Origin: Candidatus Latescibacterota bacterium
GTDB lineage: Bacteria > Latescibacterota > UBA2968
Assembly: GCA_965204375.1 (NCBI GenBank)
Contig: OZ241986.1
Location: 5,024,001 to 5,088,000 of the forward strand
DNA length: 64,000 bases
Direction of reading: 5' to 3'
Shown: positions 4,538-30,500 of the stretch, one piece after another
How the letters are laid out: each line of letters opens with the position of its first letter
How positions within the stretch are numbered: position 1 is the first letter of the stretch
Position numbers and translations under genes: made by a program
The notes under the pieces: model-generated
Databases searched by the model: none
What the model saw: only the letters and a program-made list of their open reading frames with translations
Told to the model about the DNA's origin: nothing

Positions 4538-4587
4538 TCACCTGATAGAATTGACCTCGACTATTGAACTACAAAAAGAATGCCCCA

Positions 4588-4629
4588 GTGTCAAAAATAA
4601 TTGACACTATTTTTATATTCCTATATATT
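4588..4629 (+). promoter_or_regulatory. Sigma70-type promoter with overlapping palindrome
   Basis: TTGACA (4601-4606), 17 bp, TATATT (4624-4629); GTGTCAA-aaataa-TTGACAC inverted repeat over the -35. Confidence 0.6.
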
Positions 4630-4635
4630 TTTAGC

Positions 4636-4775
4636 ATTGCCCCTTCAGACATTCAGTGCTGAAGCCCCCGGACTTGTTAGTGGGTCCGGGTTGAATTTGT
4701 AAATAATTAACCACCCCTGTTGCTTCGGGAGCAGGGCGCGAAGCCGTATAGAATTCTATACGGCTTCTGCATTTT
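4636..4775 (+). ncRNA. Candidate four-hairpin ncRNA; 3' half is an orphan copy of the NYN-leader RNA
   Basis: Hairpins CTTCAG/CTGAAG and CCCGGAC/GTCCGGG, then 4701-4770 nearly identical to 24847-24917; no ORF follows on this strand. Confidence 0.6.
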
Positions 4776-4785
4776 GGAAATCGTG

Positions 4786-6062: not shown

Positions 6063-8960
6063 TTAAACGTCAATCCGCGTCGATTTACCGCCATGAACGC
6101 TCGGCTCGGCGCACCATTGGTCGCGCAAAATGGAGAGGGGTTCAAGAGTTGCTTCGGGCAGGCGCAACAGGTCCACCAGGACCGCACGGTCAAGAGCTTT
6201 CCGAGTTTCGTCCCGATACGCTTCGTTGGCTGGTAGAAACTCCGCTTCCTCGAATGCTTCAAAGATGTCCTCGGCTTGAGCGATCTGCTCCTCACTGAGG
6301 GAGCGTGGGTCCAACACCGTTAGACGAGGTAGTTGAGTGATTGTGAGAATCGCACGGCCCTGTTGCTGTCGAGATCCAATCCACCAGAAGGCGAGGAGGC
6401 CCAATGTTGTATTGGACCACAAGACCAGGGGTACGGTCCACTCGTCTTGTGCCGGGATAAAGTTAGGCCATGCTCGACCACCAATCGTTTTGGCTGGCGT
6501 GAGACAAGCAGTGAGGCTTTGCGAGTTGATCCGAAAATCGAGGTTGAAGTGTAGCCGTGAGGCAGTTGTGTTCCACACCTCAATAGCGTGAGCGTCACAG
6601 TCGGGGCGGACTTCTCCCTCGCTATCGGGGAGGACGACGAGGCTCCGTTCACGCTGGGCATCGTGGCCCCATAAAACCGGATACTGCGGCACGCCTTGAA
6701 TGGGGATGATTTCAAACGGTCCTCGCGGTGCTCCATTGGTAGTTCCGGAGATGTCGCGGTGAAGCAGACCTGTCTTGCCGATAGCTCCGAGGTGAATTGT
6801 GGAAAGTGGCGTGGAGTAGCCTTGGGGTAGCCGAAGCCTTCCTGCTTCCAGCCCAAGAGCGGTATCGGCGAGTGTGGTTTCACGGAGGGACGCACAACCG
6901 CCCTGGCTTAAAGGTGCCCGAATGTACGTGCCGATGGTCTGGTGATTTCCTACATTCAGCCGCCCTTGCCGATCTTGAGGTGAGAGGTGACTTACCGCCC
7001 GCGCTGTCTCAAAGGCTTCCGCGAGGTTGTGTGGCCGGTGATAGAGATTGACAAACAGCGTTTCCCCACATCCCTGTTGTCCACCGCGGCACTTGTTGGC
7101 CACCACGAGGGCTTCGGCCATGCCTGTATCGGCTGAAAAGGCTCGATCTGTCTGACCGTGCGCTGCAATAGTCAGCACGACCAAGTCCTTGTACTTGCTT
7201 TCCAGCAAGCGACGGGCGTCCTTCCAAGAACTACCGCTCACACACGCCGCTGGCAGGACCAGCGCGAGGACACCGCCGGGCTTAGTCTTGATGTGGGCGA
7301 GGTCAATGAAGTTGGACGCCAGCCCTGCGTTACCGTGGCCGACCGGATTGACTAACTGCCGACGGATCTGAGCTAGCCGTTTGGACATGGCCTGTTGTTC
7401 ATCTTCACTTGTACCCAACCCGGCAAAAGACGGTACTGGCACCTCGGCCTTCTCATGGTTGGTTGGTCGTGTGAAGGGGGGATTCATAATTACCAGATCA
7501 GCCGTTCCGGAGGGGAGGATCATGTCCTGGCTTCCCTCGGCTTCCACATCTGCACCCGTACCGCGTGCCACATGGATGCCTGTTCCAAACAGCGATGGTG
7601 CTGTGTCATCCTCAATGAGGTCGAGAGCACCCAGGGCCATGGTATGCCGCTTTTCTTGGCTCTGCTGTCCATAGGGCAAAGTGTGGACACGAGTGTTACC
7701 AAAGGTTGTGCCCGGATGAGTGCTCGATAGCATGGATGCGGTAAGATGCGTTGCGGCTGGCATGATGTCGGCAGCGATGAGGGCGTGTTCCATCATCTTA
7801 GTGTGCAGCACCTGATCGTCACCGCCAATTCGCCGATGACGCGAGGCCAAGGCACGGTACGCCGCCGAGAGCAGAGTGCCGGTTCCGCAGGCAAGGTCGG
7901 CGACCTGGAGACGGGTGAGGGCATCGGGGTTGGACCAATCCGTTACCGCGTCGAGGCGTGATACGGCCAACTCACCGAGTAGCGCAGCAGATGTCGGTAG
8001 CGTGTAGAATGTGGCGAGGAACTTCCGATCAGCAATAAGCCTCTGGAACATGCGCCCAGAGAGGTCGTGTAAGGTGGTAGCTCCTAAGCCAGCTAAATCA
8101 CTGGCTGCCTGAGCGAGACGATTGAGAACTACATGCGCGGTGCTGTCGGCGATAGGCAGGAGCAGGTCGGAGGCAATGCGGAAGATCGGATAGTAATTGA
8201 TATTGTCGAGGATATGCTGCCAGCAGGCGAGCAAGCGGCTTTTACTGACATCGTTGCGGCCAGGAATACGCAATTCGTCGATGGTTTCGATACCGTGCGC
8301 GTCAACAATAGCGGTGTGGAAGACGAGGGCGTTGGCGACAATGGCCATGGCCATACGCGAGGTTTGCTCACCATCTTCTTGATGGAGGGACTGCGCCATT
8401 CTCTCCAGCGCATGGATGCTGGCTGTTTCGCGTAGCTTGCCAGCGGCTTCGCCTATGCTCTGTTCCAGAATTTGCGTTCCCTCAGCAAGCAGCCGTTCAG
8501 ACAGTGCGACGTTTTCAATGCAGGCAGCAAGATCAGCAATACTACCGGTAAGCCAACCCTCAGACGGCCAGCGCACGACAGTATCCTTTTCTTGCAGTGA
8601 GAAGGTACAGTAACGGAACTCAGCGGTTTCGATTTGCCGCTTTAGGTCTCCCTGTGGCGCACGACTCAGTTCTTGTGGGACCTGGACAGCTATGGTCTGC
8701 TCTATCAAGTCGCCGTTGTACTCCAAGAATTTTCCCAAACGAGCCGTAGCATCTGCTTCGACGCTACGCGCTGGTATAAACTCTGTCTCGATAATGACTG
8801 GTACACCGCCTGGAGGACGAATGACAATATCCGGTTGCAGGACGGTCTCTCGGAGGACATCCCGTTGCTCCACACCGACGTGATCGCGCCAGCGTGGATG
8901 CTTGGTCTGTAGTACATCTAATAGCCGGACATTGAAGGCGATTTCGTTGGTTTTGGGCAT
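6063..8960 (-). CDS. Type IIG-like fused restriction endonuclease / N6-adenine methyltransferase
   Basis: Motif I DLACGTGTLL, motif IV NPPF, N-terminal PD..IIETE nuclease-like motif, 965 aa. Confidence 0.8.
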   Translation of the reverse strand: MPKTNEIAFNVRLLDVLQTKHPRWRDHVGVEQRDVLRETVLQPDIVIRPPGGVPVIIETEFIPARSVEADATARLGKFLEYNGDLIEQTIAVQVPQELSRAPQGDLKRQIETAEFRYCTFSLQEKDTVVRWPSEGWLTGSIADLAACIENVALSERLLAEGTQILEQSIGEAAGKLRETASIHALERMAQSLHQEDGEQTSRMAMAIVANALVFHTAIVDAHGIETIDELRIPGRNDVSKSRLLACWQHILDNINYYPIFRIASDLLLPIADSTAHVVLNRLAQAASDLAGLGATTLHDLSGRMFQRLIADRKFLATFYTLPTSAALLGELAVSRLDAVTDWSNPDALTRLQVADLACGTGTLLSAAYRALASRHRRIGGDDQVLHTKMMEHALIAADIMPAATHLTASMLSSTHPGTTFGNTRVHTLPYGQQSQEKRHTMALGALDLIEDDTAPSLFGTGIHVARGTGADVEAEGSQDMILPSGTADLVIMNPPFTRPTNHEKAEVPVPSFAGLGTSEDEQQAMSKRLAQIRRQLVNPVGHGNAGLASNFIDLAHIKTKPGGVLALVLPAACVSGSSWKDARRLLESKYKDLVVLTIAAHGQTDRAFSADTGMAEALVVANKCRGGQQGCGETLFVNLYHRPHNLAEAFETARAVSHLSPQDRQGRLNVGNHQTIGTYIRAPLSQGGCASLRETTLADTALGLEAGRLRLPQGYSTPLSTIHLGAIGKTGLLHRDISGTTNGAPRGPFEIIPIQGVPQYPVLWGHDAQRERSLVVLPDSEGEVRPDCDAHAIEVWNTTASRLHFNLDFRINSQSLTACLTPAKTIGGRAWPNFIPAQDEWTVPLVLWSNTTLGLLAFWWIGSRQQQGRAILTITQLPRLTVLDPRSLSEEQIAQAEDIFEAFEEAEFLPANEAYRDETRKALDRAVLVDLLRLPEATLEPLSILRDQWCAEPSVHGGKSTRIDV

Positions 8961-9547: not shown

Positions 9548-9621
9548 TGGTTGCCCCCCAGGGATTCGAACCCCGATTCTACGGTCCAGAGCCGCATGTC
9601 TTGCCATTAGACGAGGGGGCA
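9548..9621 (-). tRNA. tRNA-Gln(CTG)
   Basis: TGCCCCC acceptor stem, anticodon loop ct-CTG-ga, GGTTCGAATCC T-arm, encoded CCA. Confidence 0.95.
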
Positions 9622-11113: not shown

Positions 11114-11205
<92 letters not shown>

Positions 11206-11342: not shown

Positions 11343-11430
11343 TGGCGGTGGGGGTGGGATTCGAACCCACGGACCCGCGAGGGTCAACGGTTTTCAAGAC
11401 CGCCCGATTCGACCGCTCTCGCACCCCACC
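11343..11430 (-). tRNA. tRNA-Ser(TGA)
   Basis: GGTGGGG acceptor stem, ct-TGA-aa anticodon loop, long variable arm, CCA. Confidence 0.95.
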
Positions 11431-21405: not shown

Positions 21406-23028
21406 ATGCGATTTGGTACCATGTTGTTGGTATTAACAGTCTCAATGATAACGCAATCGTGCAGAATTGAGTCTCCATTTTTTGTTAACATCGTTGCAAG
21501 CCAGGTAGTGTATGGCTATACTCTTGGGGAAGGACCATCTCCATTCAAACTTCAAAGCAGCATTGCACTCAGAATGCAAAACGGTTTTAAGGACACCCTC
21601 ATCATTGGAGATGATTCAGGAACCCGTCATGGAGTACGCATGAGAAATGTCATGCATAATAATGTGGGCATCCCTCTTAAGAATCTTGTGTTCTTCAGTA
21701 AATTTGGGTATATCGATTGGGATGTGGGCACCAGAGAAAATCGTGGATTACGTCTCCTTACCTCGGGGAGGTATGAAATGTTACGAAAAGCAACTCGAGT
21801 AGTGCATGTACCGAAATTCACACCGTTTGAGTCCTCACACAATGTGCCAAGAATACGAGAAAACACCATACTGTTTGTTGTGGGAGTTGGTAACATGATA
21901 GGTTCATTTAATGAAGACCGGGATATGTACAACATTAACCATGTGGTATGGAATGATAGGGGTCTTGGACCATACTACACGCCAAGAGAAAACTACAAAG
22001 ATGTCCTGGAGGCATATAATACCGGCAAAGTCATTGCAGCAACATCTGCGCTGATAACAGATGCAGGGACAGTCAAGCCGTATAAAGAGGTAGTATCCTG
22101 CGGGGATATCAAAGAATCATGTTTTACTGTACTAGAATCATTTTATACTTCCAGTGCTTCAGCTCATCTTGCCGGAATATCCTTTTATCTGGCACAGTTT
22201 TGGGAAACACCGGAAGAGATAGTTGATGTGTTGAAGTCCTGTGCAATAGATATTGGAGAACCAGGAGTTGATCGTGAATTTGGTCAAGGAGCGGTAAATC
22301 TCTGGTGTCCCAGGGTCCTGAAAAAAGAAGTGGAGATGGTTTCAGAATATCTGGGAAATACAGGAGAAAGAGGGGAAACATTGCAAGGAGGAAATCTTGA
22401 AGGTCTCTGGAGAGCTGACAGCACTACTCTGCAGGTATATATCCCAAGATCGCTAAAAGAAACCACGAGGGCTGAATATCAAGGAGGAACGGTAAATGGC
22501 ACAGTGGAGTTTGCGGGTGGTATGGCAACAGCAGATTTCACCGCAAGAGGGGTGATAAAGGCAGGATTCCTCATGCTCACTCGACCCATTGAAGCAACCG
22601 CTGAAGATGTGATTCGGTTTGAAGAGGCATACACCGTTGATCAGGAAAAGATAGCAGCTGGTGATCAATCCTTTAGCTACACAGCAACAAGAGATTCTCT
22701 GCATTTGGTGCGAACTTTCTCGCTGAATGAAGCGCTGTCCTTGTTACCAGATCCTCTGGGAAGCATGGTAGACATGGCATCACCTGATTTCTTTGCTGAT
22801 GACCCCATACAACTGAGAATGAGTTTTTTGAGAGAAAAATCTTTTCTTCTTGGTGACTTTAACGAAGACGGCAGGGTTGATACTGCTGATTTCTTACTGT
22901 TCGTTGATACCTTTGGATCATCCCGAGGAGATATATCATTTGATGAAACCATGGATCTCGTCCCTGACGGCATCATCAATGTTGCTGACTTCATCATCTT
23001 TATTGATCAATTCGGCAAAACAGCATAA
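21406..23028 (+). CDS. Divergent subtilase-like lipoprotein with C-terminal dockerin/EF-hand pair (paralog 1)
   Basis: TQSC lipobox; TSSASAHLAG; DIGEPGVDREFGQG; GDFNEDGRVDTADF...DGIINVADF. Confidence 0.6.
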   Translation: MRFGTMLLVLTVSMITQSCRIESPFFVNIVASQVVYGYTLGEGPSPFKLQSSIALRMQNGFKDTLIIGDDSGTRHGVRMRNVMHNNVGIPLKNLVFFSKFGYIDWDVGTRENRGLRLLTSGRYEMLRKATRVVHVPKFTPFESSHNVPRIRENTILFVVGVGNMIGSFNEDRDMYNINHVVWNDRGLGPYYTPRENYKDVLEAYNTGKVIAATSALITDAGTVKPYKEVVSCGDIKESCFTVLESFYTSSASAHLAGISFYLAQFWETPEEIVDVLKSCAIDIGEPGVDREFGQGAVNLWCPRVLKKEVEMVSEYLGNTGERGETLQGGNLEGLWRADSTTLQVYIPRSLKETTRAEYQGGTVNGTVEFAGGMATADFTARGVIKAGFLMLTRPIEATAEDVIRFEEAYTVDQEKIAAGDQSFSYTATRDSLHLVRTFSLNEALSLLPDPLGSMVDMASPDFFADDPIQLRMSFLREKSFLLGDFNEDGRVDTADFLLFVDTFGSSRGDISFDETMDLVPDGIINVADFIIFIDQFGKTA

Positions 23029-23195: not shown

Positions 23196-24773
23196 ATGCA
23201 TACTGCTAAGGTGTTTGCGGTACTTGCTGCAGCAATGCTGCTGCAATCCTGCAGGATTGAAATGCCTTCGTTGATTCATATTATTAGTAATTATGTACCG
23301 AATGCTCTGGAGCATCCGAATATGTATAACTTTAGTACAAGTAAAGCGGTTACACTGCAAGGTGGCTTCAAAGATACGCTCATTCTTGGTGATCCATGGG
23401 AGTGGCATGCATCGCTTATGCATAATGTGTTAACCAGGTGGCGCATTCCTGAAGAAAGTATTCTTCTCTTTGGAGATTTTGGATTTTCTGCTGGAGACGG
23501 TAATGAAGGATTACGCCTCCTCATATCAGGTGATTACGAAGAACTGCGCAAAGCGACACGCGTTGTTGCTCTGCCGATGTCTCCTCCTTTTACAGAGCCA
23601 GTGGATGTGCCGAGGGTACTGCGTACGAACACACTGTTTGCCTTAGCAGCCGATAATATGGATGATTACCATGAAGGGGATCGTGATTTCTACAACATTA
23701 ACCATGTCGCCTGGAGTCACCGCAACCCTGAAGTAGATCAGATGTTTAAGATATACTACCAGGCCATTCTGGATGTCTACAACACGGGTAAAGTCATAGC
23801 GGCAACTTCAGCGCGTGTGACTGAGGCAGGGGAGGTTAAGCCGTTTGAGCATGTCGTGCAGTGCGGAGACATTAAAGAGTCTTGTTTCACGATGATTCCA
23901 GAGCAAACCACCTCAAGCACTTCCACCCGCCTCGCCGCCATGTCCTTCTACCTTGCACAGTTCTATGCAACACCTGAGGAGATCATTGATGTTCTCAAAG
24001 AATGTGCGATAGATGTCGGAGAACCCGGAGTAGACAGAGAATACGGCAGAGGTGTCGTAAATCTTCTGTGTCCCCGTGTACTGCACAAAGAGTTAGAGAT
24101 TGTCGGAAAGCACCTGGAACGAGAAGCAACAAAGGAAATGTTCACAGGAGGAGATCTTGTCGGCACCTGGGAAGCAAAAGAAACAGACCTGCAGGTACAT
24201 ATACCTCAGGTACTCAGAGAAACTGTGGAGACCACGTATACAGGTACCGTCACCGGTACGCTTGCGTTTACAGAGGAAACAGTGCAAGCAGACATCAGTC
24301 TGCAGGCATCCATTGCCGCTCACTTCCTTCTTCCCCTCAAAGCGAAAGCAGAAGATGTGATTAAAACAGAAGGCATCTACACCACTGAAGACCATCAGGT
24401 TACTTTTCCGGAGGGAAGAGTATTCACCTACCATGCGACCGATGATTCTCTCTCGTTAACCCGGCACCTCTCTTTAACTGATATCCTCCGTCTTCTTCCA
24501 GGACACTTCGGTTCCATGGCAGAGCAGCACGGAAAAGAGTTACTCAGTGATCCTGTGGCAATCACCTTGCGTTTCAGGAAAGCACGAATACCCGGTGACT
24601 TTGACAACAATGAGGTTATCGACTTCGCCGACTTCCTCCTCTTCATTCAGGCATTCGGATCTGTTCGGGGAGATGCAGTGTTTAACGAAAGAATGGATTT
24701 GGTGCCTGACGATATGATTAACTTTGCCGATTTCATCATATTTATTGAAAATTTCGGGAATTATGTAGGATAG
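23196..24773 (+). CDS. Divergent subtilase-like lipoprotein with C-terminal dockerin/EF-hand pair (paralog 2)
   Basis: LQSC lipobox; TSSTSTRLAA; DVGEPGVDREYGRG; GDFDNNEVIDFADF; collinear with paralog 1. Confidence 0.6.
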   Translation: MHTAKVFAVLAAAMLLQSCRIEMPSLIHIISNYVPNALEHPNMYNFSTSKAVTLQGGFKDTLILGDPWEWHASLMHNVLTRWRIPEESILLFGDFGFSAGDGNEGLRLLISGDYEELRKATRVVALPMSPPFTEPVDVPRVLRTNTLFALAADNMDDYHEGDRDFYNINHVAWSHRNPEVDQMFKIYYQAILDVYNTGKVIAATSARVTEAGEVKPFEHVVQCGDIKESCFTMIPEQTTSSTSTRLAAMSFYLAQFYATPEEIIDVLKECAIDVGEPGVDREYGRGVVNLLCPRVLHKELEIVGKHLEREATKEMFTGGDLVGTWEAKETDLQVHIPQVLRETVETTYTGTVTGTLAFTEETVQADISLQASIAAHFLLPLKAKAEDVIKTEGIYTTEDHQVTFPEGRVFTYHATDDSLSLTRHLSLTDILRLLPGHFGSMAEQHGKELLSDPVAITLRFRKARIPGDFDNNEVIDFADFLLFIQAFGSVRGDAVFNERMDLVPDDMINFADFIIFIENFGNYVG

Positions 24774-24798
24774 TGACCAAAGGAAAAACTAAAAACCA

Positions 24799-24836
24799 TT
24801 GACATTACTGTCCTATTGTTGTATTGTGTATATAAT
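24799..24836 (+). promoter_or_regulatory. Sigma70-type promoter of the RNA-NYN unit
   Basis: TTGACA (24799-24804), 17 bp, TATTGT; additional TATAAT at 24831-24836. Confidence 0.65.
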
Positions 24837-24846
24837 GTTGAATAAA

Positions 24847-24922
24847 AAATAATTTACCACCCCTGTTGCTTCGGGAGCAGGGCGCGAAGCCGTATAGATT
24901 TTCTATACGGCTTCTGCTTTTT
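24847..24922 (+). ncRNA. Two-hairpin leader RNA (cUUCGg hairpin plus terminator-like hairpin), putative antitoxin RNA
   Basis: CCCTGTT-G-C(TTCG)G-G-AGCAGGG, then GAAGCCGTATAG/CTATACGGCTTC and TGCTTTTT; duplicated at 4701-4770. Confidence 0.65.
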
Positions 24923-24932
24923 AGGAGATTTG

Positions 24933-25592
24933 ATGAAAACCTATATTTATATTGATGGGCTTAATTTATATTATAGAGCCGTGCGAGGGACGCCTTATAA
25001 GTGGTTAGATATAGCTACATTATTTCAAACAATGTATCCCCACAACAACATTTGTAAAATCAAATACTTTACTTCAATTGTAAAATCGCGCCCTGATGAT
25101 CCAGGGAAACCAGGACGCCAACAGATGTTCTTGCGGGCTTTAAGAACTTTTCCACATATTGAAATCATTGAAGGAAAATTTCAGATGAACAAAGCCAGAA
25201 TGCGATTGGTTTCGCCAGACCCTAATGGCCCTAATACCGCAGAAGTTTGGAAAACAGAAGAAAAAGGATCAGATGTCAACATAGCTGTCCATTTATTAAA
25301 CGATGCTCATAGTAAAAATTTTGATGTTGCTGTTCTTGTATCAAATGATTCTGATTTCGCCGAGGCTATACGAATTGTAACCCAAGATTTAAACTTGCAG
25401 GTAAGCGTGGTATCTCCTACTGGCGCAATCAATCCTAATACAGGTGATCGAGAACCAGCCAGAACTTCAAGAACCCTTCAACAATATGCTTCATCTGTAC
25501 GTCGAATTCGGTCGGGTATTCTCGCAAGCAGTCAGCTTCCTAATGTATTGACTGACTCTAAAGGGACTTTTCGCAAACCACCGGAATGGTAA
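24933..25592 (+). CDS. NYN domain (LabA/DUF88, PIN-fold) ribonuclease
   Basis: YIDGLNLYY, EEKGSDVNIA and VSNDSDF acidic residues intact; AGGAG RBS. Confidence 0.9.
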   Translation: MKTYIYIDGLNLYYRAVRGTPYKWLDIATLFQTMYPHNNICKIKYFTSIVKSRPDDPGKPGRQQMFLRALRTFPHIEIIEGKFQMNKARMRLVSPDPNGPNTAEVWKTEEKGSDVNIAVHLLNDAHSKNFDVAVLVSNDSDFAEAIRIVTQDLNLQVSVVSPTGAINPNTGDREPARTSRTLQQYASSVRRIRSGILASSQLPNVLTDSKGTFRKPPEW

Positions 25593-25777
25593 TAAAACCA
25601 CAAACCTTTGGTCACTATCCTACATAACTCCCCAATATAACTACCTTTGAGGTCATATCTGCGTAACTCGCCTGGTGTTCATCCAGGCACCACAACTACC
25701 TTCCTGCATGCCCTGTGTTCTTCAGGGCATTTTTTGTGTACTTTTTCCAATAATCCCCCTATTTCATTCCAATCCCA

Positions 25778-25816
25778 ACTGTTTCATTTGAAACACTTAC
25801 TGTGTCATTTGAAACA
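25778..25816. promoter_or_regulatory. Tandem palindromic operator pair (21-bp period)
   Basis: ACTGTTTCATTTGAAACA and ACTGTGTCATTTGAAACA. Confidence 0.55.
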
Positions 25817-25961: not shown

Positions 25962-26807
25962 ATGATACACCAGTCCGTAGAACGCAAAGAAAAACTCCAT
26001 CTGCTTAAAGAAAACCTATCAAAACGCATCGACACCCTGCTCATCGGTCCAATCGGCATAGGCAAAAGCCATCTCCTCGCGCAAGTCGATGCAGACCATG
26101 TACTCAAAGTAAAAACCCTATCCCCAATAAAAGAAGCCCTCATAAATATTGCGGAAGAACTTCACAAAAGTGGAAAACTTTATCCGCATATTGAGGACTT
26201 TGAAAAAATCAAAAAACGACACACCCGCGAAACCATTCAAGCATGGACAGACATAGTACTCGACTCAGTGACAAAAAACGAATGCGTATTAATCGTAGAT
26301 GACTTATCCGACATAACGCCCTCTGTCGGGCGACTAATCGACAAACTCAACCGCAAATACATCATCATAGCCGCCCTGCGCGAAATCAAAAAAACGTACG
26401 AAAAACACTTCTGGAAATTCGACCGCATAGAAATAGAACCCTTATCCACCCCCGAAGCAAAAAACCTGATCTGGCAATGTACTGCTGGCGCCGACATAGA
26501 AGATTACCACATGACCGAAACATCCATATTACAACAAAGTGCTGGCAACCCGCGCGCCATCATCGAAATCGTCGAAAGACTCCGCAAAGAACCCGCCGTA
26601 ACCCGATCCGTCGTGCAACATGTATCTCACACAGGCGCCCGAAACCAGATTGACCTCACCTTCATAGTCGTCCTCCTCTTACTCGCAGTCGTCGCAGCGC
26701 GATTCTTCATGCGTGGCATCGGGAGCATGGAAGGCTATGTGCTCGCTGGCATCGGCAGCGCGATCCTCGTAGGCATTCGATTCTTCATGTACAGGTTCAA
26801 ACGATGA
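25962..26807 (+). CDS. P-loop ATPase with C-terminal TM hairpin
   Basis: GPIGIGKS (Walker A), LIVDDL (Walker B), SAGNPRAI, two C-terminal TMs. Confidence 0.75.
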   Translation: MIHQSVERKEKLHLLKENLSKRIDTLLIGPIGIGKSHLLAQVDADHVLKVKTLSPIKEALINIAEELHKSGKLYPHIEDFEKIKKRHTRETIQAWTDIVLDSVTKNECVLIVDDLSDITPSVGRLIDKLNRKYIIIAALREIKKTYEKHFWKFDRIEIEPLSTPEAKNLIWQCTAGADIEDYHMTETSILQQSAGNPRAIIEIVERLRKEPAVTRSVVQHVSHTGARNQIDLTFIVVLLLLAVVAARFFMRGIGSMEGYVLAGIGSAILVGIRFFMYRFKR

Positions 26808-27985
26808 CCGCACCGACACACATAGCATTTGGACTGCTCACCGTGGCGGGATCCTTTTCGTTCTTCTCCATGCCCCTTCACCGCAACCTCCCCGCTGTCG
26901 CCTGCGCCATCATAGGAAGCGTGCTCCCGGATATAGATTCGCCAAAGAGCTATATCGGTCGCGTGCTCCCTTATGCATCCATCCCCATTGAGAGGCAATG
27001 GGGACACCGCACAATCACACACTCGCTACCTTGCCTGATCGCCCTATCGGTTATGATCTGGCCCCTGCTCATTTGGCAAACCCCGTGCTATGCGGCCCTA
27101 CTCCTGGGCTATATGAGTCATTTAATCGCCGATTGCGCCACCAGGAGCGGCGTACCCCTATTTTATCCCCATTCAGCGGCCTGTGTCTTCCCCGGCAGCG
27201 CGAAATACAGAATCAAAACCGGATCTGTGGGAGAACGCTACCTGTTAATCGGGCTCGTATTCATGCTCCTGATATTCCTGCCCATATTGCACATGGGAGG
27301 CATCTGGAAATCATTCAGATACCTCATGGCCACGCCCTCTGCTGCATACGCAGATTACCGACAAGCCGACACAGAAACCATCTTAACCTTTGAAGGACGC
27401 TGGCGACACACGCGGGAGCACGTACGCGGAGAAGGTGTGATCCTCGATGCCAGATCCACCATGTTCTGGATCGTAGTCAAAGGACAGGTTCAAACATGCG
27501 GAGAACACGGCGCCATCTTACCGGGCAAAGTGCGCGTGCGCGAAACAGATCGCCCCGTACAAATACAGACGCTCCAGTTGAAAAACGAAACATGGGAGCA
27601 ACTGGTAAATCAGATCCCCAAAAACAGTTTTGTATCTGGACAACTCAAAGCAACTGAAACATTCTCCCCCAGGCGCGAAACTCCCAATGCCATCACCGTC
27701 ACCTCCCGGTCATTGAAATTTCAATTTGCCCGAAAAGGGGACATCACGCGGCTTCAGCCCGTCTCTCAAAATTTATCAGAACGCGTAAAAAATCTATCAG
27801 AGGAAATATTGAGAATTTGTGAAAAACTGGAAATCGCAAAAATGGCTTATCCGCCAGTTCACTACCTCGAACTGAGTCGAATGGAACAAGAAATTACAGA
27901 AAAAAGAAAAAAAATCGAAAAACTGAAACGCGCCCAGGTACGATTCAGTGGCACATTACACATTCGCATACCGGGAGAGACATAA
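26804..27985 (+). CDS. Membrane metal-dependent hydrolase (YdjM-like) with extended C-terminus
   Basis: TH, GSVLPDID, GHRTITHS, SHLIAD..T.SG motifs; ATGA overlap with the ATPase. Confidence 0.85.
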   Translation: MTAPTHIAFGLLTVAGSFSFFSMPLHRNLPAVACAIIGSVLPDIDSPKSYIGRVLPYASIPIERQWGHRTITHSLPCLIALSVMIWPLLIWQTPCYAALLLGYMSHLIADCATRSGVPLFYPHSAACVFPGSAKYRIKTGSVGERYLLIGLVFMLLIFLPILHMGGIWKSFRYLMATPSAAYADYRQADTETILTFEGRWRHTREHVRGEGVILDARSTMFWIVVKGQVQTCGEHGAILPGKVRVRETDRPVQIQTLQLKNETWEQLVNQIPKNSFVSGQLKATETFSPRRETPNAITVTSRSLKFQFARKGDITRLQPVSQNLSERVKNLSEEILRICEKLEIAKMAYPPVHYLELSRMEQEITEKRKKIEKLKRAQVRFSGTLHIRIPGET

Positions 27986-28040
27986 TGCGCGAAAAATGCA
28001 GAACATCCCCTATTCGCTCGCGCAACGGCGACAAATGTTT

Positions 28041-30500
28041 TCAGGCATTTCGGAAAAACTCAATACGCCTGTTAATATCCCTCGCCACCTCAAGAACCTC
28101 CACAGGTGCACGAACCATCTCGCCGGAACGCTGTCGTAAGGCAACAATAAGAGGTTCCAACGCATCGGATTTCCCCCTGGACAGGAGAATATCGACAAGA
28201 TCAGGCTCCGAGGCACCGTTTGCGATCAAATCGGGCACGAGTTGTAGTATCTCGTACATCATCGTCTCATTGTCAGGTAGGAACACCGCATACGCCGACT
28301 GAAACACATCCATAGCCATCCGTAGTCTGTTCCTTAGCAGCAGTGCCAAAGCATGGACATACTTTGCTCGCCATACAAACACCACCTTCTCATCGTCAGC
28401 CAACGCACCGAGTCTTCCCTCAAGCTCTTCACTTATGAGCATAGCTTCTTTCATACGCCCTACCTTAATTTGTATCATACCCTTTTGGGACAATGCCCAG
28501 GCGATCAGAACCCGGATCGCTGGCACATCGCTGGTACCAAAACGCTCGATCACTTCCTCATACGCAGATACTGCCAGCCCCAACTCTCCCAGTTGGGCTT
28601 GCAAATCTCCCTTTTGGGACAACGCATAGGCGACCATAAGCTGAATCCCCGATGCATCGCTGGAGCCAAAACGGGCAATCACCTCTTCATATACAGACAC
28701 CGCCAAACCCAACTCTTTCTGTTGGACTTGCAAATCTCCCTTTTTTAACAGCGCCAGAGCGACCGGAAACTGGAAATCGGGAGCGTCGCTGGTACCAAAA
28801 CGCTCAATCACCTCCTCATATGCCGACATCACCAACCCCAACTCTCCGAGTTCATATCGCGCTCTTGCCCCGTGGATCAATACGCGGGCCATCCGCGCCA
28901 GGAGTGTATGGTCGCTCGCGTCGTCGAAACGCTCAACCGTCTCATCGCAAACCGCGACCACCCTTTGGAAATCCTCCAATTTTTCATAAGCAATAGCCCT
29001 CATATGCAATATGTAGGCGACGAGAGACTCTGGCATCAGAGATGCATCCACGCTTCCTGAAGCGATAAAATGGTCCCCAATCTCGATAACCCTCTCGTAT
29101 TCTCTCTCATCGAGTGCCGTTTGGATCTCCTCTTTTAAACGCAGTTCCGCCGCAAATGGCGAATTTGCTGTCGCCCTGTCCGATATGTGTTCGATGGCCG
29201 ACCAGGCCACGCGCAAAAAATTGTCCTCAACCTGCGGTTGTTCGGCGAGCGCACGCTCAATACCCTCGCGAATAACCTTTGACTCCGCCGCCGCCAAACT
29301 CAGCCGACCAGACATCTGGTACAACTCGCCTATCCCGTAGAACGCCATCATGAAATGGATCAGATTCCTCATATCTGTCGCCTCGTCGCGCTCGCGCCGC
29401 AACTTGTAATAGATGCTATAGAGAGGTTCCCCTGCGGCGTACAATCGCTTCCTTCCAGCCCCCTCCACGACGACCGCACCCCGGTTGACAAGCCGACCGA
29501 GCATAGTCGATACGGGCCGAACCCCCATACGCGCCCGCGCCGCGATCTCGCTCGTACTCGACGGTCGCCAAAAATCAATCAACGCGAGATACACGCGGCG
29601 CTCGCTCCTGGGCAAAGCCTCCAGATAACCGCGAAAATACTCGGTATGCTCATCAACCAGCGTCACCAGTTCTTCCATCAACTGGCGCAACGACCTGTGC
29701 TGCGCGAACTCGGCAACCATAATCAGGAGGCGGGGATTGCCACCGGTCAGAATCTCGAGCGGCCTGATCTCCTGTTCAGTCACCGCATCGCCGCTGACCA
29801 CCTGCCACAGACGGCAACAGTCCTCGGTACTCAGCGGTTCCAGATCGACAATTCGGAACAACTCAAAAAACGGCTCCGCCGCATTTTCCAGACCCTCAAA
29901 GCGACTCGTCGCAGTAGCGATCAGCACGATCCGAGGCTCGGACTCCAATGCGCCGCGCAACTGCCAGCCAAAATCGTCATCTATATCTTCGCAGAGCGTT
30001 TGCAGGTTTTCGACCATAAGAACGAGTTTTTTGCCCAACCGGTCCGCCGCGTCCAGAACAGCGGCACGGGCGCGATCCGCGAGCGCATCCTCATCCCAGT
30101 GATCGGTCAGATCGGCATGCGCCTCTCGCAACTCCTGTGCGAGCGCGGAATCGTACTTGACGCTCTCCCGCGCAAGATAGAACAGCGTCTCGAGCCAAAA
30201 ATCTGCAAGATTGAATATCTCGTGACTCTCCTCCATAAACCGAACCGACAAAAAACACATAGAGAGTTCCTTATCAGCATTCAACTCCGCCGAGACGCGC
30301 GCGAGCAACATCGTCTTTCCCCGCCCCCGAGGCGCGACCACCAGAACGTGCTGGCACGATGGTGAACCGATATTTCTGCGCAGCACCCCAAGCACCGTAT
30401 CGAGTTCGTGTTTCCTCACCGCGAACTGATCAATCACCTCTTCGTCGGACTGGAACGTCCCCGGATTGAACTTGCGGATTGGACGATCAGACTTGTTCAT
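28041..30500 (-). CDS. AAA/STAND-like ATPase with wHTH and 43-aa TPR-like repeats
   Basis: APRGRGKT, MVENL, TGGNPRL, HTH (TSEIAARAR), three ELGL...YEEVI.RFG.SD repeats. Confidence 0.8.
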   Translation of the reverse strand: MNKSDRPIRKFNPGTFQSDEEVIDQFAVRKHELDTVLGVLRRNIGSPSCQHVLVVAPRGRGKTMLLARVSAELNADKELSMCFLSVRFMEESHEIFNLADFWLETLFYLARESVKYDSALAQELREAHADLTDHWDEDALADRARAAVLDAADRLGKKLVLMVENLQTLCEDIDDDFGWQLRGALESEPRIVLIATATSRFEGLENAAEPFFELFRIVDLEPLSTEDCCRLWQVVSGDAVTEQEIRPLEILTGGNPRLLIMVAEFAQHRSLRQLMEELVTLVDEHTEYFRGYLEALPRSERRVYLALIDFWRPSSTSEIAARARMGVRPVSTMLGRLVNRGAVVVEGAGRKRLYAAGEPLYSIYYKLRRERDEATDMRNLIHFMMAFYGIGELYQMSGRLSLAAAESKVIREGIERALAEQPQVEDNFLRVAWSAIEHISDRATANSPFAAELRLKEEIQTALDEREYERVIEIGDHFIASGSVDASLMPESLVAYILHMRAIAYEKLEDFQRVVAVCDETVERFDDASDHTLLARMARVLIHGARARYELGELGLVMSAYEEVIERFGTSDAPDFQFPVALALLKKGDLQVQQKELGLAVSVYEEVIARFGSSDASGIQLMVAYALSQKGDLQAQLGELGLAVSAYEEVIERFGTSDVPAIRVLIAWALSQKGMIQIKVGRMKEAMLISEELEGRLGALADDEKVVFVWRAKYVHALALLLRNRLRMAMDVFQSAYAVFLPDNETMMYEILQLVPDLIANGASEPDLVDILLSRGKSDALEPLIVALRQRSGEMVRAPVEVLEVARDINRRIEFFRNA

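Follow-up and report, generated by a model that had tools for sequence, protein, structure and literature searches.

In type III systems (ToxIN, CptIN, TenpIN and the AbiF type) a constitutive promoter, a structured small RNA, an intrinsic terminator and an RNase gene follow one another. We analysed a locus of similar build in a 64,000-nucleotide stretch of DNA from a Candidatus Latescibacterota bacterium (assembly GCA_965204375.1, contig OZ241986.1, positions 5,024,001 to 5,088,000 of the forward strand; hereafter the window). Positions 24600-25800 hold, in this order, a promoter, two hairpins (P1 and P2), a T-run, the ribosome-binding site (RBS) AGGAG, an ATG and a gene for a nuclease of the NYN/LabA type (Table 1). 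An earlier reading made from the letters only (the sequence-only reading) had proposed just such an order of promoter, RNA, terminator, RBS and NYN gene at 24799-25592, and every part was found on reading the sequence. P2, which it had described as a perfect 12-bp hairpin with a U-tail, is indeed a hairpin before a T-run; its stem comprises 13 perfect pairs, with 2 further pairs outside them and a bulged U. As set out below, the RNA accompanies NYN genes across phyla. We give an even chance to the pair being a type III-like module of an RNA antidote and a nuclease, working by toxin-antitoxin or abortive-infection logic.

We analysed whether the RNA belongs to NYN genes in general. The NYN protein has 4,595 relatives at E values up to 1e-5 in a large protein collection, and we surveyed 80 loci that encode relatives of 44-56% identity, from Chloroflexota, Acidobacteriota, Gemmatimonadota, Verrucomicrobiota, Actinomycetota, several Proteobacteria and others. 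Iterated nhmmer searches seeded with the copies of the RNA from this genus alone reached loci of other phyla within four rounds. The resulting RNA model, R1, gave 80 matches in the 413,614 bases of the 80 loci, covering 78 of them; as R1 was built from the surveyed loci, this count is a census, and the step from the seed to other phyla is the independent part of the test. A single match was found in 76 of the 78 RNA-bearing loci. In the two loci negative for R1 (L067 and L134) a contig edge lies on the side where the RNA is expected. The conserved structured RNA that the sequence-only reading had suggested looking for in the DNA upstream of NYN homologs is thus present beside 78 of the 80.

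The RNA is not always upstream. It precedes NYN in tandem in 57 of the 78 loci, is divergent and upstream in 13 (Acidobacteriota), and lies downstream in convergent orientation in 8 (Actinomycetota). The picture of a leader in the order promoter, RNA, terminator, nuclease therefore stands for the 57 and for the locus studied here, and has to be replaced by that of a separate gene in the other 21. In all three orientation classes a near-consensus sigma-70 promoter is found at a fixed distance before the RNA, placing the predicted RNA start two to four bases before a run of C; a match of at least 10/12 to the sigma-70 consensus precedes 39 of the 80 RNA copies, compared with 0.1% of 2000 control windows. 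We conclude that the RNA is an independent gene, one specifically tied to NYN.

These counts bear on the simplest alternative, namely that the element is a shared terminator, a REP-like (repetitive extragenic palindromic) sequence or some DNA-level site untied to NYN. P2 is a textbook intrinsic terminator and P1 is near-palindromic as DNA, as such an element would be. However, the 6.3-Mb genome contains exactly three copies, on which BLAST and the covariance model agree, and each of them is next to NYN or occupies a place where NYN is present in relatives. Moreover, only 2 of the 80 R1 matches lie away from NYN in the flanks of about 5 kb that the surveyed loci comprise, and the promoters precede the RNA on the strand that yields the two hairpins and then the U-run. 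The genome-wide scatter beside unrelated genes that the sequence-only reading had named as counter-evidence is thus not what the genome contains; copy number and NYN linkage together exclude a generic terminator or REP, and we regard any variant of it as having next to no probability.

The RNA is about 65 nt long. From the 5' end, it has a short C-rich tail, then P1 with its loop of the UUCG type, and then the terminator hairpin P2; the copy at the studied locus (copy A), as in this genus, has an apparent A/U-rich 5' extension of about 25 nt, the start site being a prediction. The three genomic copies fold with stability z-scores of -4.6 (copy A), -5.2 and -3.6, and none of 200 shuffles equalled them. 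In an alignment of 72 distinct instances (A4), RNAalifold predicted two helices and compensatory change at 17 of 17 predicted pairs. In the 20-pair structure 92.4% of cells were paired and 223 cells showed a change in both partners; sliding the partners lowered these figures to 38-47% and 24-46, respectively. Of 500 shuffles, none attained any of the observed measures. Both helices thus covary strongly and are under selection, in agreement with the sequence-only reading, which had suspected selection on the RNA itself and had called for a covariation test. The sole sequencing run recorded as RNA (X1, as assembled contigs) contained a 588-nt contig over the NYN gene of a relative, with 43 differences, and nothing over the small RNA.

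No match to the RNA was found in Rfam 15, the only matches in the whole window being three tRNAs, and a permissive scan of 24740-24960 reached at best 20 bits against gathering scores of 55-216. The C-rich small RNA RsaE showed a sub-threshold likeness (19.2 bits against a gathering score of 79). Together with the conserved unpaired C-run at the 5' end, this weak likeness would suit a type I-like antisense RNA, whose C-rich tail pairs with the purine-rich RBS region of the NYN mRNA and blocks translation. However, when the first 16 nt of the RNA were paired with the NYN start in the 21 loci with a separate RNA gene, the mean energy was -7.5 kcal/mol, no better than the -8.7 kcal/mol with shuffled start regions, and the convergent RNA never overlaps the NYN coding sequence. 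We consider antisense action very unlikely.

We compared the three copies in the genome. Within the window there are two occurrences of the 23-nt P1 string, where 100 shuffles gave none. The second copy that the sequence-only reading had seen near 4701-4770 is real (copy B, Table 1); the genome holds three copies, however, not two. Copies A and B are the same except for the A/U linker, the P2 loop and the tail. The 3' neighbour of copy B is the end of a convergent gene, and there is no NYN gene at this place. The 195-nt module around it is 97-98% identical in seven related species, where the alignable pieces of the flanks are 76-89% identical, and its counterparts have NYN directly 3', intact or disrupted, in six of the seven and a truncated NYN remnant in the seventh. 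We had considered copies A and B as direct repeats of a 20-kb island and rejected this, each being an NYN module of its own. The palindrome at 4587-4608 in the copy B module resembles an operator, and two relatives (L008 and L014) have duplicated palindromes like it ahead of the RNA. The pair of leader hairpins of copy B, with a U-run of its own, also precedes a broken NYN gene of a different subfamily in an IS1595-type cassette of a relative (L142:300-365), from which we suspect that there is a second type of RNA linked to NYN and that modules have recombined.

Copy C lies outside the window, about 178 kb before its start. Its P1 is the same as in the other copies; its P2 is entirely different and entirely compensated. 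An antiterminator in which the P1 loop pairs with the base of P2, searched for by eye, was dropped because this pairing is not preserved in copy C. Copy C was also taken for an orphan RNA until a genome-wide protein search revealed a second, intact NYN paralog (61% identical) 160 nt downstream, with two terminators in between.

Where the two are in tandem, the end of the R1 match and the NYN start codon are usually no more than about 13 nt apart. There is therefore no space for a second promoter, and NYN would be transcribed only by read-through of the terminator. This arrangement raises the possibility of an autoregulatory leader, with P1 as the recognition hairpin of NYN itself, bound or cut to set NYN expression, in cis when the two are in tandem and as a titrating decoy when they are separate, with no toxin-antidote logic. 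Indeed, any NYN mRNA would begin with the RNA as its 5' leader in 57 of the 78 loci, the start codon abuts the terminator, the bacterial RNase genes rne, rnc and pnp have autoregulatory 5' leaders, and eukaryotic NYN/PIN-like RNases such as Regnase-1 recognise stem-loop RNAs. On the other hand, RNA and NYN lie on opposite strands in 21 of the 78 loci, with separate transcription of the RNA from its own promoter, copy C is set apart from its NYN by the two terminators and 160 nt, and orphan copies of the RNA are perfectly conserved. Furthermore, an independent consensus promoter would not be retained for a mere leader. We think autoregulation an improbable explanation, though one deserving attention.

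The NYN protein has a single Pfam match, to NYN (PF01936), at 49.4 bits against a cut-off of 24.2. The intact catalytic Asp motifs attributed to it before are confirmed, as the acidic residues of the active site (D8, D114 and the motif N138-D-S-D141, with D139 and D141 within it) are invariant in 15 aligned homologs, and the nuclease is apparently active. A search of the PDB with the sequence gave no match; an AlphaFold2 model (pLDDT 87.2) found 2QIP (E 6.9e-9) and the NYN domain of MARF1 as its best folds in Foldseek. Its C-terminal part, residues 165-219, is a small conserved module of about 55 amino acids. Homologs on Xanthomonas and Klebsiella plasmids (CP030170.1, OW848835.1 and others) are annotated as 6-hydroxy-3-succinoylpyridine hydroxylase or HspA, which looks like a propagated misannotation.

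In PADLOC, the protein matched only HEC-09 and NYN. The match to the HEC-09 model PDLC04163 is full-length (E 5.3e-37, residues 4-219 on profile positions 5-202 of 203). HEC-09, or Hma-embedded candidate 9 of PADLOC-DB v2, is an NYN-domain candidate found within Hma defence systems (Payne et al., bioRxiv 10.1101/2024.01.29.577857). It was handled there as a single-gene candidate, and the main text of the preprint contains no use of the terms non-coding, ncRNA or small RNA. We found no match to an Hma component among eight other window proteins scanned with PADLOC (three beside NYN, one upstream and four in the copy B region).

Among the genomes of the genus, R1 found 20 RNA copies in 14 of 21: 10 before an intact NYN, 4 before a broken NYN and 6 without NYN. 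All 10 intact NYN genes of this type in the genus have the RNA. A genus NYN subfamily at 35-39% identity has its own, divergent two-hairpin RNA in 5 of 5 inspected loci. In two relatives an insertion of some 1.2 kb interrupts, at the same place (about residue 85-89), the NYN gene that follows an intact RNA (G002:C1:597738-599599 and G006:C1:6058127-6060011, in our numbering of genomes and contigs). A third, distant NYN paralog (35% identity) lies about 12 kb past the end of the window (G000:C1:5100542-5101144, locus L149); upstream of it, and divergently transcribed, is a variant two-hairpin RNA that is kept in four relatives and was missed by R1.

It is also possible that the RNA is a positive subunit of the enzyme, that is, a scaffold, specificity element or sensor of a ribonucleoprotein acting on some RNA target. 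That the linkage is near-obligate whatever the orientation (78 of the 80 loci), that variants are subfamily-specific and that the RNA has a high predicted stability would all be expected of such a cofactor, and the published test noted no toxic effect of HEC-09. However, variation in the RNA consists of compensatory stem changes, with no variable guide-like segment. A strong promoter, with a terminator before NYN, would give a large excess of RNA, needless for a 1:1 cofactor, and 10 of the 20 copies in the genus persist with NYN broken or gone. In addition, the same type of cassette elsewhere carries a toxin-antitoxin pair (see below). We therefore regard a cofactor role as unlikely, without dismissing it.

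The RNA-NYN pair lies in an 883-bp cassette that has no transposase and is bounded by inverted repeats (Table 1). The unrelated gene upstream (23196-24773) ends within the left repeat, which provides its last codons and covers its stop. A 23-nt core of the repeat has three near-exact copies in the genome, two of which flank this cassette. The same end motif bounds, elsewhere in the genome, a 4.7-kb element with a DDE_Tnp_IS1595 transposase (E 1.5e-38; G000:C1:1314631-1319335, L143). In relatives, these ends also enclose the genes of a HicA/HicB toxin-antitoxin pair, a different NYN gene and a further RNA-NYN module. As these ends bound both a transposase element and toxin-antitoxin cassettes, the pair would move as the cargo of a non-autonomous insertion cassette, presumably mobilised in trans, and toxin-antitoxin-type genes seem to be the speciality of mini-cassettes with these repeats. 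Just outside the arms, the 8 bases on the left and right differ, and no target-site duplication is recognisable with the ends placed here, whose true position is uncertain. The HicA toxin gene and HicB-like antitoxin gene of relative G014 occupy a 645-bp cassette (L045:1501-2162). The 4.7-kb element also carries a gene for a leishmanolysin-like peptidase, and it splits a histidine kinase gene, with HisKA_3 on one side and HATPase_c on the other.

NYN homologs were also found on 451 of 72,556 plasmids, some of only 3.4-5.4 kb, and in 3 of 50,697 phage records. We scanned 11 loci, on plasmids and in a prophage among others, that had not been used to build R1: 5 matched at E <1e-4 and 8 at E <0.05. 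The RNA is directly upstream of NYN on a 3,461-bp E. coli plasmid (30.6 bits), a Leptospira plasmid (35.9 bits) and a 4.6-kb Escherichia plasmid (29.1 bits), and convergent with NYN on a 3.5-kb E. coli plasmid (21.6 bits) and in a Mycobacterium abscessus prophage (60.2 bits), where the pair lies between integrase and repressor. Three loci on Klebsiella, Xanthomonas and Rhizobium plasmids have a match of E 0.006-0.035 at the expected place beside NYN. The three further loci gave no full-length R1 match; a terminator hairpin precedes the NYN start in two (L157 and L159), and a hairpin without a U-run in the third (L160). Distant plasmid subfamilies have longer or different variants of the RNA. 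On the 4.6-kb Escherichia plasmid there are 2.6-3.1 tandem P1 units (period 29-33), followed by one terminator and NYN. In the Xanthomonas plasmid record an IS1595 transposase gene lies directly upstream of the NYN homolog.

The module of RNA antidote and nuclease, as we infer it, would work as follows. The strong constitutive promoter would produce the small RNA in excess, and the terminator would let few transcripts pass into NYN, so that the RNA would far outnumber the protein. Bound to the RNA by way of the conserved P1 and its flanking parts, the nuclease would stay inactive. When transcription stops, upon phage infection or the loss of a plasmid or element, the RNA pool would drop, and the freed nuclease would cut cellular or invader RNA and arrest growth. 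Binding, inhibition, toxicity and trigger are all conjectural parts of this scheme, which the dosage layout, the tandem-array variant and the toxin-antitoxin company of the cassettes would fit. The decay of NYN beside an intact RNA would fit it too, yet cannot tell the readings apart, given the roughly ninefold difference in target size (see below).

Several points weigh against this scheme. No tandem repeats were found at 24700-25000, so that the RNA at the studied locus is a single unit, and it is a single unit in the 80 surveyed loci as well; known type III antitoxins, on the other hand, are tandem repeats cut by their toxin. A compact, GC-rich RNA with a UUCG loop may be long-lived, which is a poor fit to a labile antidote. 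LabA-type NYN proteins are not known to be toxins. NYN is about nine times as large a mutational target as the RNA, and the chance that six out of six first hits fall in NYN is about 0.5. Finally, in its single published test, HEC-09 was cloned with about 150 bp of its native upstream DNA and gave no protection against any phage tried (bioRxiv 10.1101/2024.01.29.577857). Of the type III-like antitoxin proposed in the sequence-only reading, then, the NYN-specific selected RNA and, in 57 of the 78 loci, the layout remain; the locus lacks tandem repeats, the putative toxin is not ToxN, AbiQ or Abi_2, and the RNA is a separate gene in 21 of the 78.

Extending the module of RNA antidote and nuclease to all these loci, one would have a phylum-spanning class in which a dedicated two-hairpin RNA, mostly without repeats, restrains a PIN-like NYN RNase: in effect a fourth type III family (toxin-antitoxin or abortive infection), structurally unrelated to the others, with co-diversifying cognate subfamilies, spread by insertion sequence cassettes, small plasmids and prophages. 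For this wider claim we put the chances a little short of even.

Table 1. Features of the RNA-NYN cassette and of the copy B module (positions of the window)
Feature	Position	Strand	Basis or description
Left terminal inverted repeat (IS1595-type end)	24753-24783	.	31-nt arms, 94% complementary, 821 nt apart
Sigma-70-like promoter TTGACA-17-TATTGT	24799-24827	+	Consensus match 10/12
NYN-associated small RNA, copy A	24853-24929	+	R1 75.2 bits, E 4.7e-18; fold; covariation in both helices
P1 hairpin, cUUCGg loop	24861-24882	+	Fold of copy A
P2 hairpin, intrinsic terminator	24884-24917	+	13 perfect pairs, 2 outer pairs, bulged U
U-run after P2	24918-24922	+	Copy A sequence
RBS AGGAG	24923-24927	+	Directly 3' of terminator
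NYN/LabA-type nuclease gene, 219 aa, PADLOC HEC-09 family	24933-25592	+	ATG at 24933; PF01936 E 9.3e-13
Right terminal inverted repeat	25605-25635	.	Pairs with left arm
Copy B module (promoter, leader, RNA; NYN lost)	4587-4782	+	R1 72.4 bits; 195-nt unit
Copy B palindrome, 22 nt, over -35 box	4587-4608	+	Sequence
Copy B promoter	4601-4629	+	Sequence
Copy B, two extra leader hairpins	about 4636-4692	+	Sequence
Copy B RNA	4707-4782	+	R1 match

Upstream of the cassette, the window positions 21406-23028 and 23196-24773 hold tandem paralogs of 540 and 525 amino acids with EF-hand/dockerin-like C-terminal repeats; the product of the second has no Pfam match, and its last few codons have been replaced by the left repeat of the cassette. 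On its other side, at 25962-27985 and 28041-30500, a gene for a P-loop NTPase with a membrane tail overlaps a gene for a YdjM-family membrane hydrolase, and a convergent gene encodes a STAND-type AAA_16/TPR protein. The genes at 25962-30500 could be a defence-like neighbourhood, though no known system matched. Copy B adjoins a gene for a 965-amino-acid protein (6063-8960) with an N6-adenine methyltransferase-like core, which has no Pfam match and gave weak PADLOC matches to mad2, PglX and a type II methyltransferase (MTase); this gene also adjoins three tRNA genes (9551-9621, 11117-11205 and 11346-11430).

The protein family has thus been catalogued already, as HEC-09, and its RNA partner is absent from Rfam 15. 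The sequence-only reading knew of no described NYN-based type III system; likewise, we found none, nor any NYN-linked RNA, in the full-text literature, a coverage that leaves many subscription papers outside. RNA and protein seem to form an undescribed mobile pair, possibly of the poison-and-antidote or anti-phage kind. If the pair is of that kind, the RNA-controlled toxin systems would gain both a nuclease fold and an RNA architecture that are new to them. The linkage also offers a testable reason why HEC-09 might have scored negative as a single gene, and the natural versions on Escherichia plasmids ease the key experiments.

How, then, does the locus compare with described systems? The protein shares the catalytic fold and acidic active site of the eukaryotic NYN/PIN-like RNases MARF1 and Regnase-1/ZC3H12A (for the MARF1 NYN domain, Foldseek E of about 1e-6 and a TM-score of about 0.7 by the target); unlike them, it has the bacterial-specific C-terminal module of about 55 amino acids and a dedicated, linked partner RNA, and its identity to them is only 10-12%. 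The tandem loci resemble rne, rnc and pnp in having a structured leader before a ribonuclease gene, from which they differ in that the RNA has its own promoter and terminator, keeps its linkage when on the other strand, and survives as an orphan. With HEC-09 the protein shares its family, by the full-length match to the profile, and the NYN fold with MARF1 as a structural neighbour; the NYN locus studied here, however, is not within an Hma system, being the cargo of an IS1595-type cassette. This cassette is similar to the mobile insertion cassettes and passenger-carrying IS1595-family elements known from the ISfinder literature in its short terminal repeats around a small transposase-free cargo, with a full element present in the genome, and differs from them in lacking a recognisable target-site duplication; its mobilisation in trans is presumed.

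The closest likeness is to the type III systems. In 57 of the 78 RNA-NYN loci and in the locus studied here, a constitutive promoter, a structured small RNA and an intrinsic terminator lead into an RNase gene, as in ToxIN, CptIN, TenpIN and AbiF-type systems; like these, the pair is carried on plasmids, prophages and mobile cassettes, and one homologous locus, on an Escherichia plasmid, has a tandem hairpin array of ToxI-like form. In contrast to them, the nuclease has an NYN/PIN-like fold, and not that of ToxN/AbiQ, CptN, TenpN or Abi_2, as judged by Pfam, PADLOC and fold, and the RNA consists of one two-hairpin unit at nearly every NYN locus and may be divergent from or convergent with the NYN gene. 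For this pair, toxicity, complex formation and processing would be further, conjectural points of likeness.

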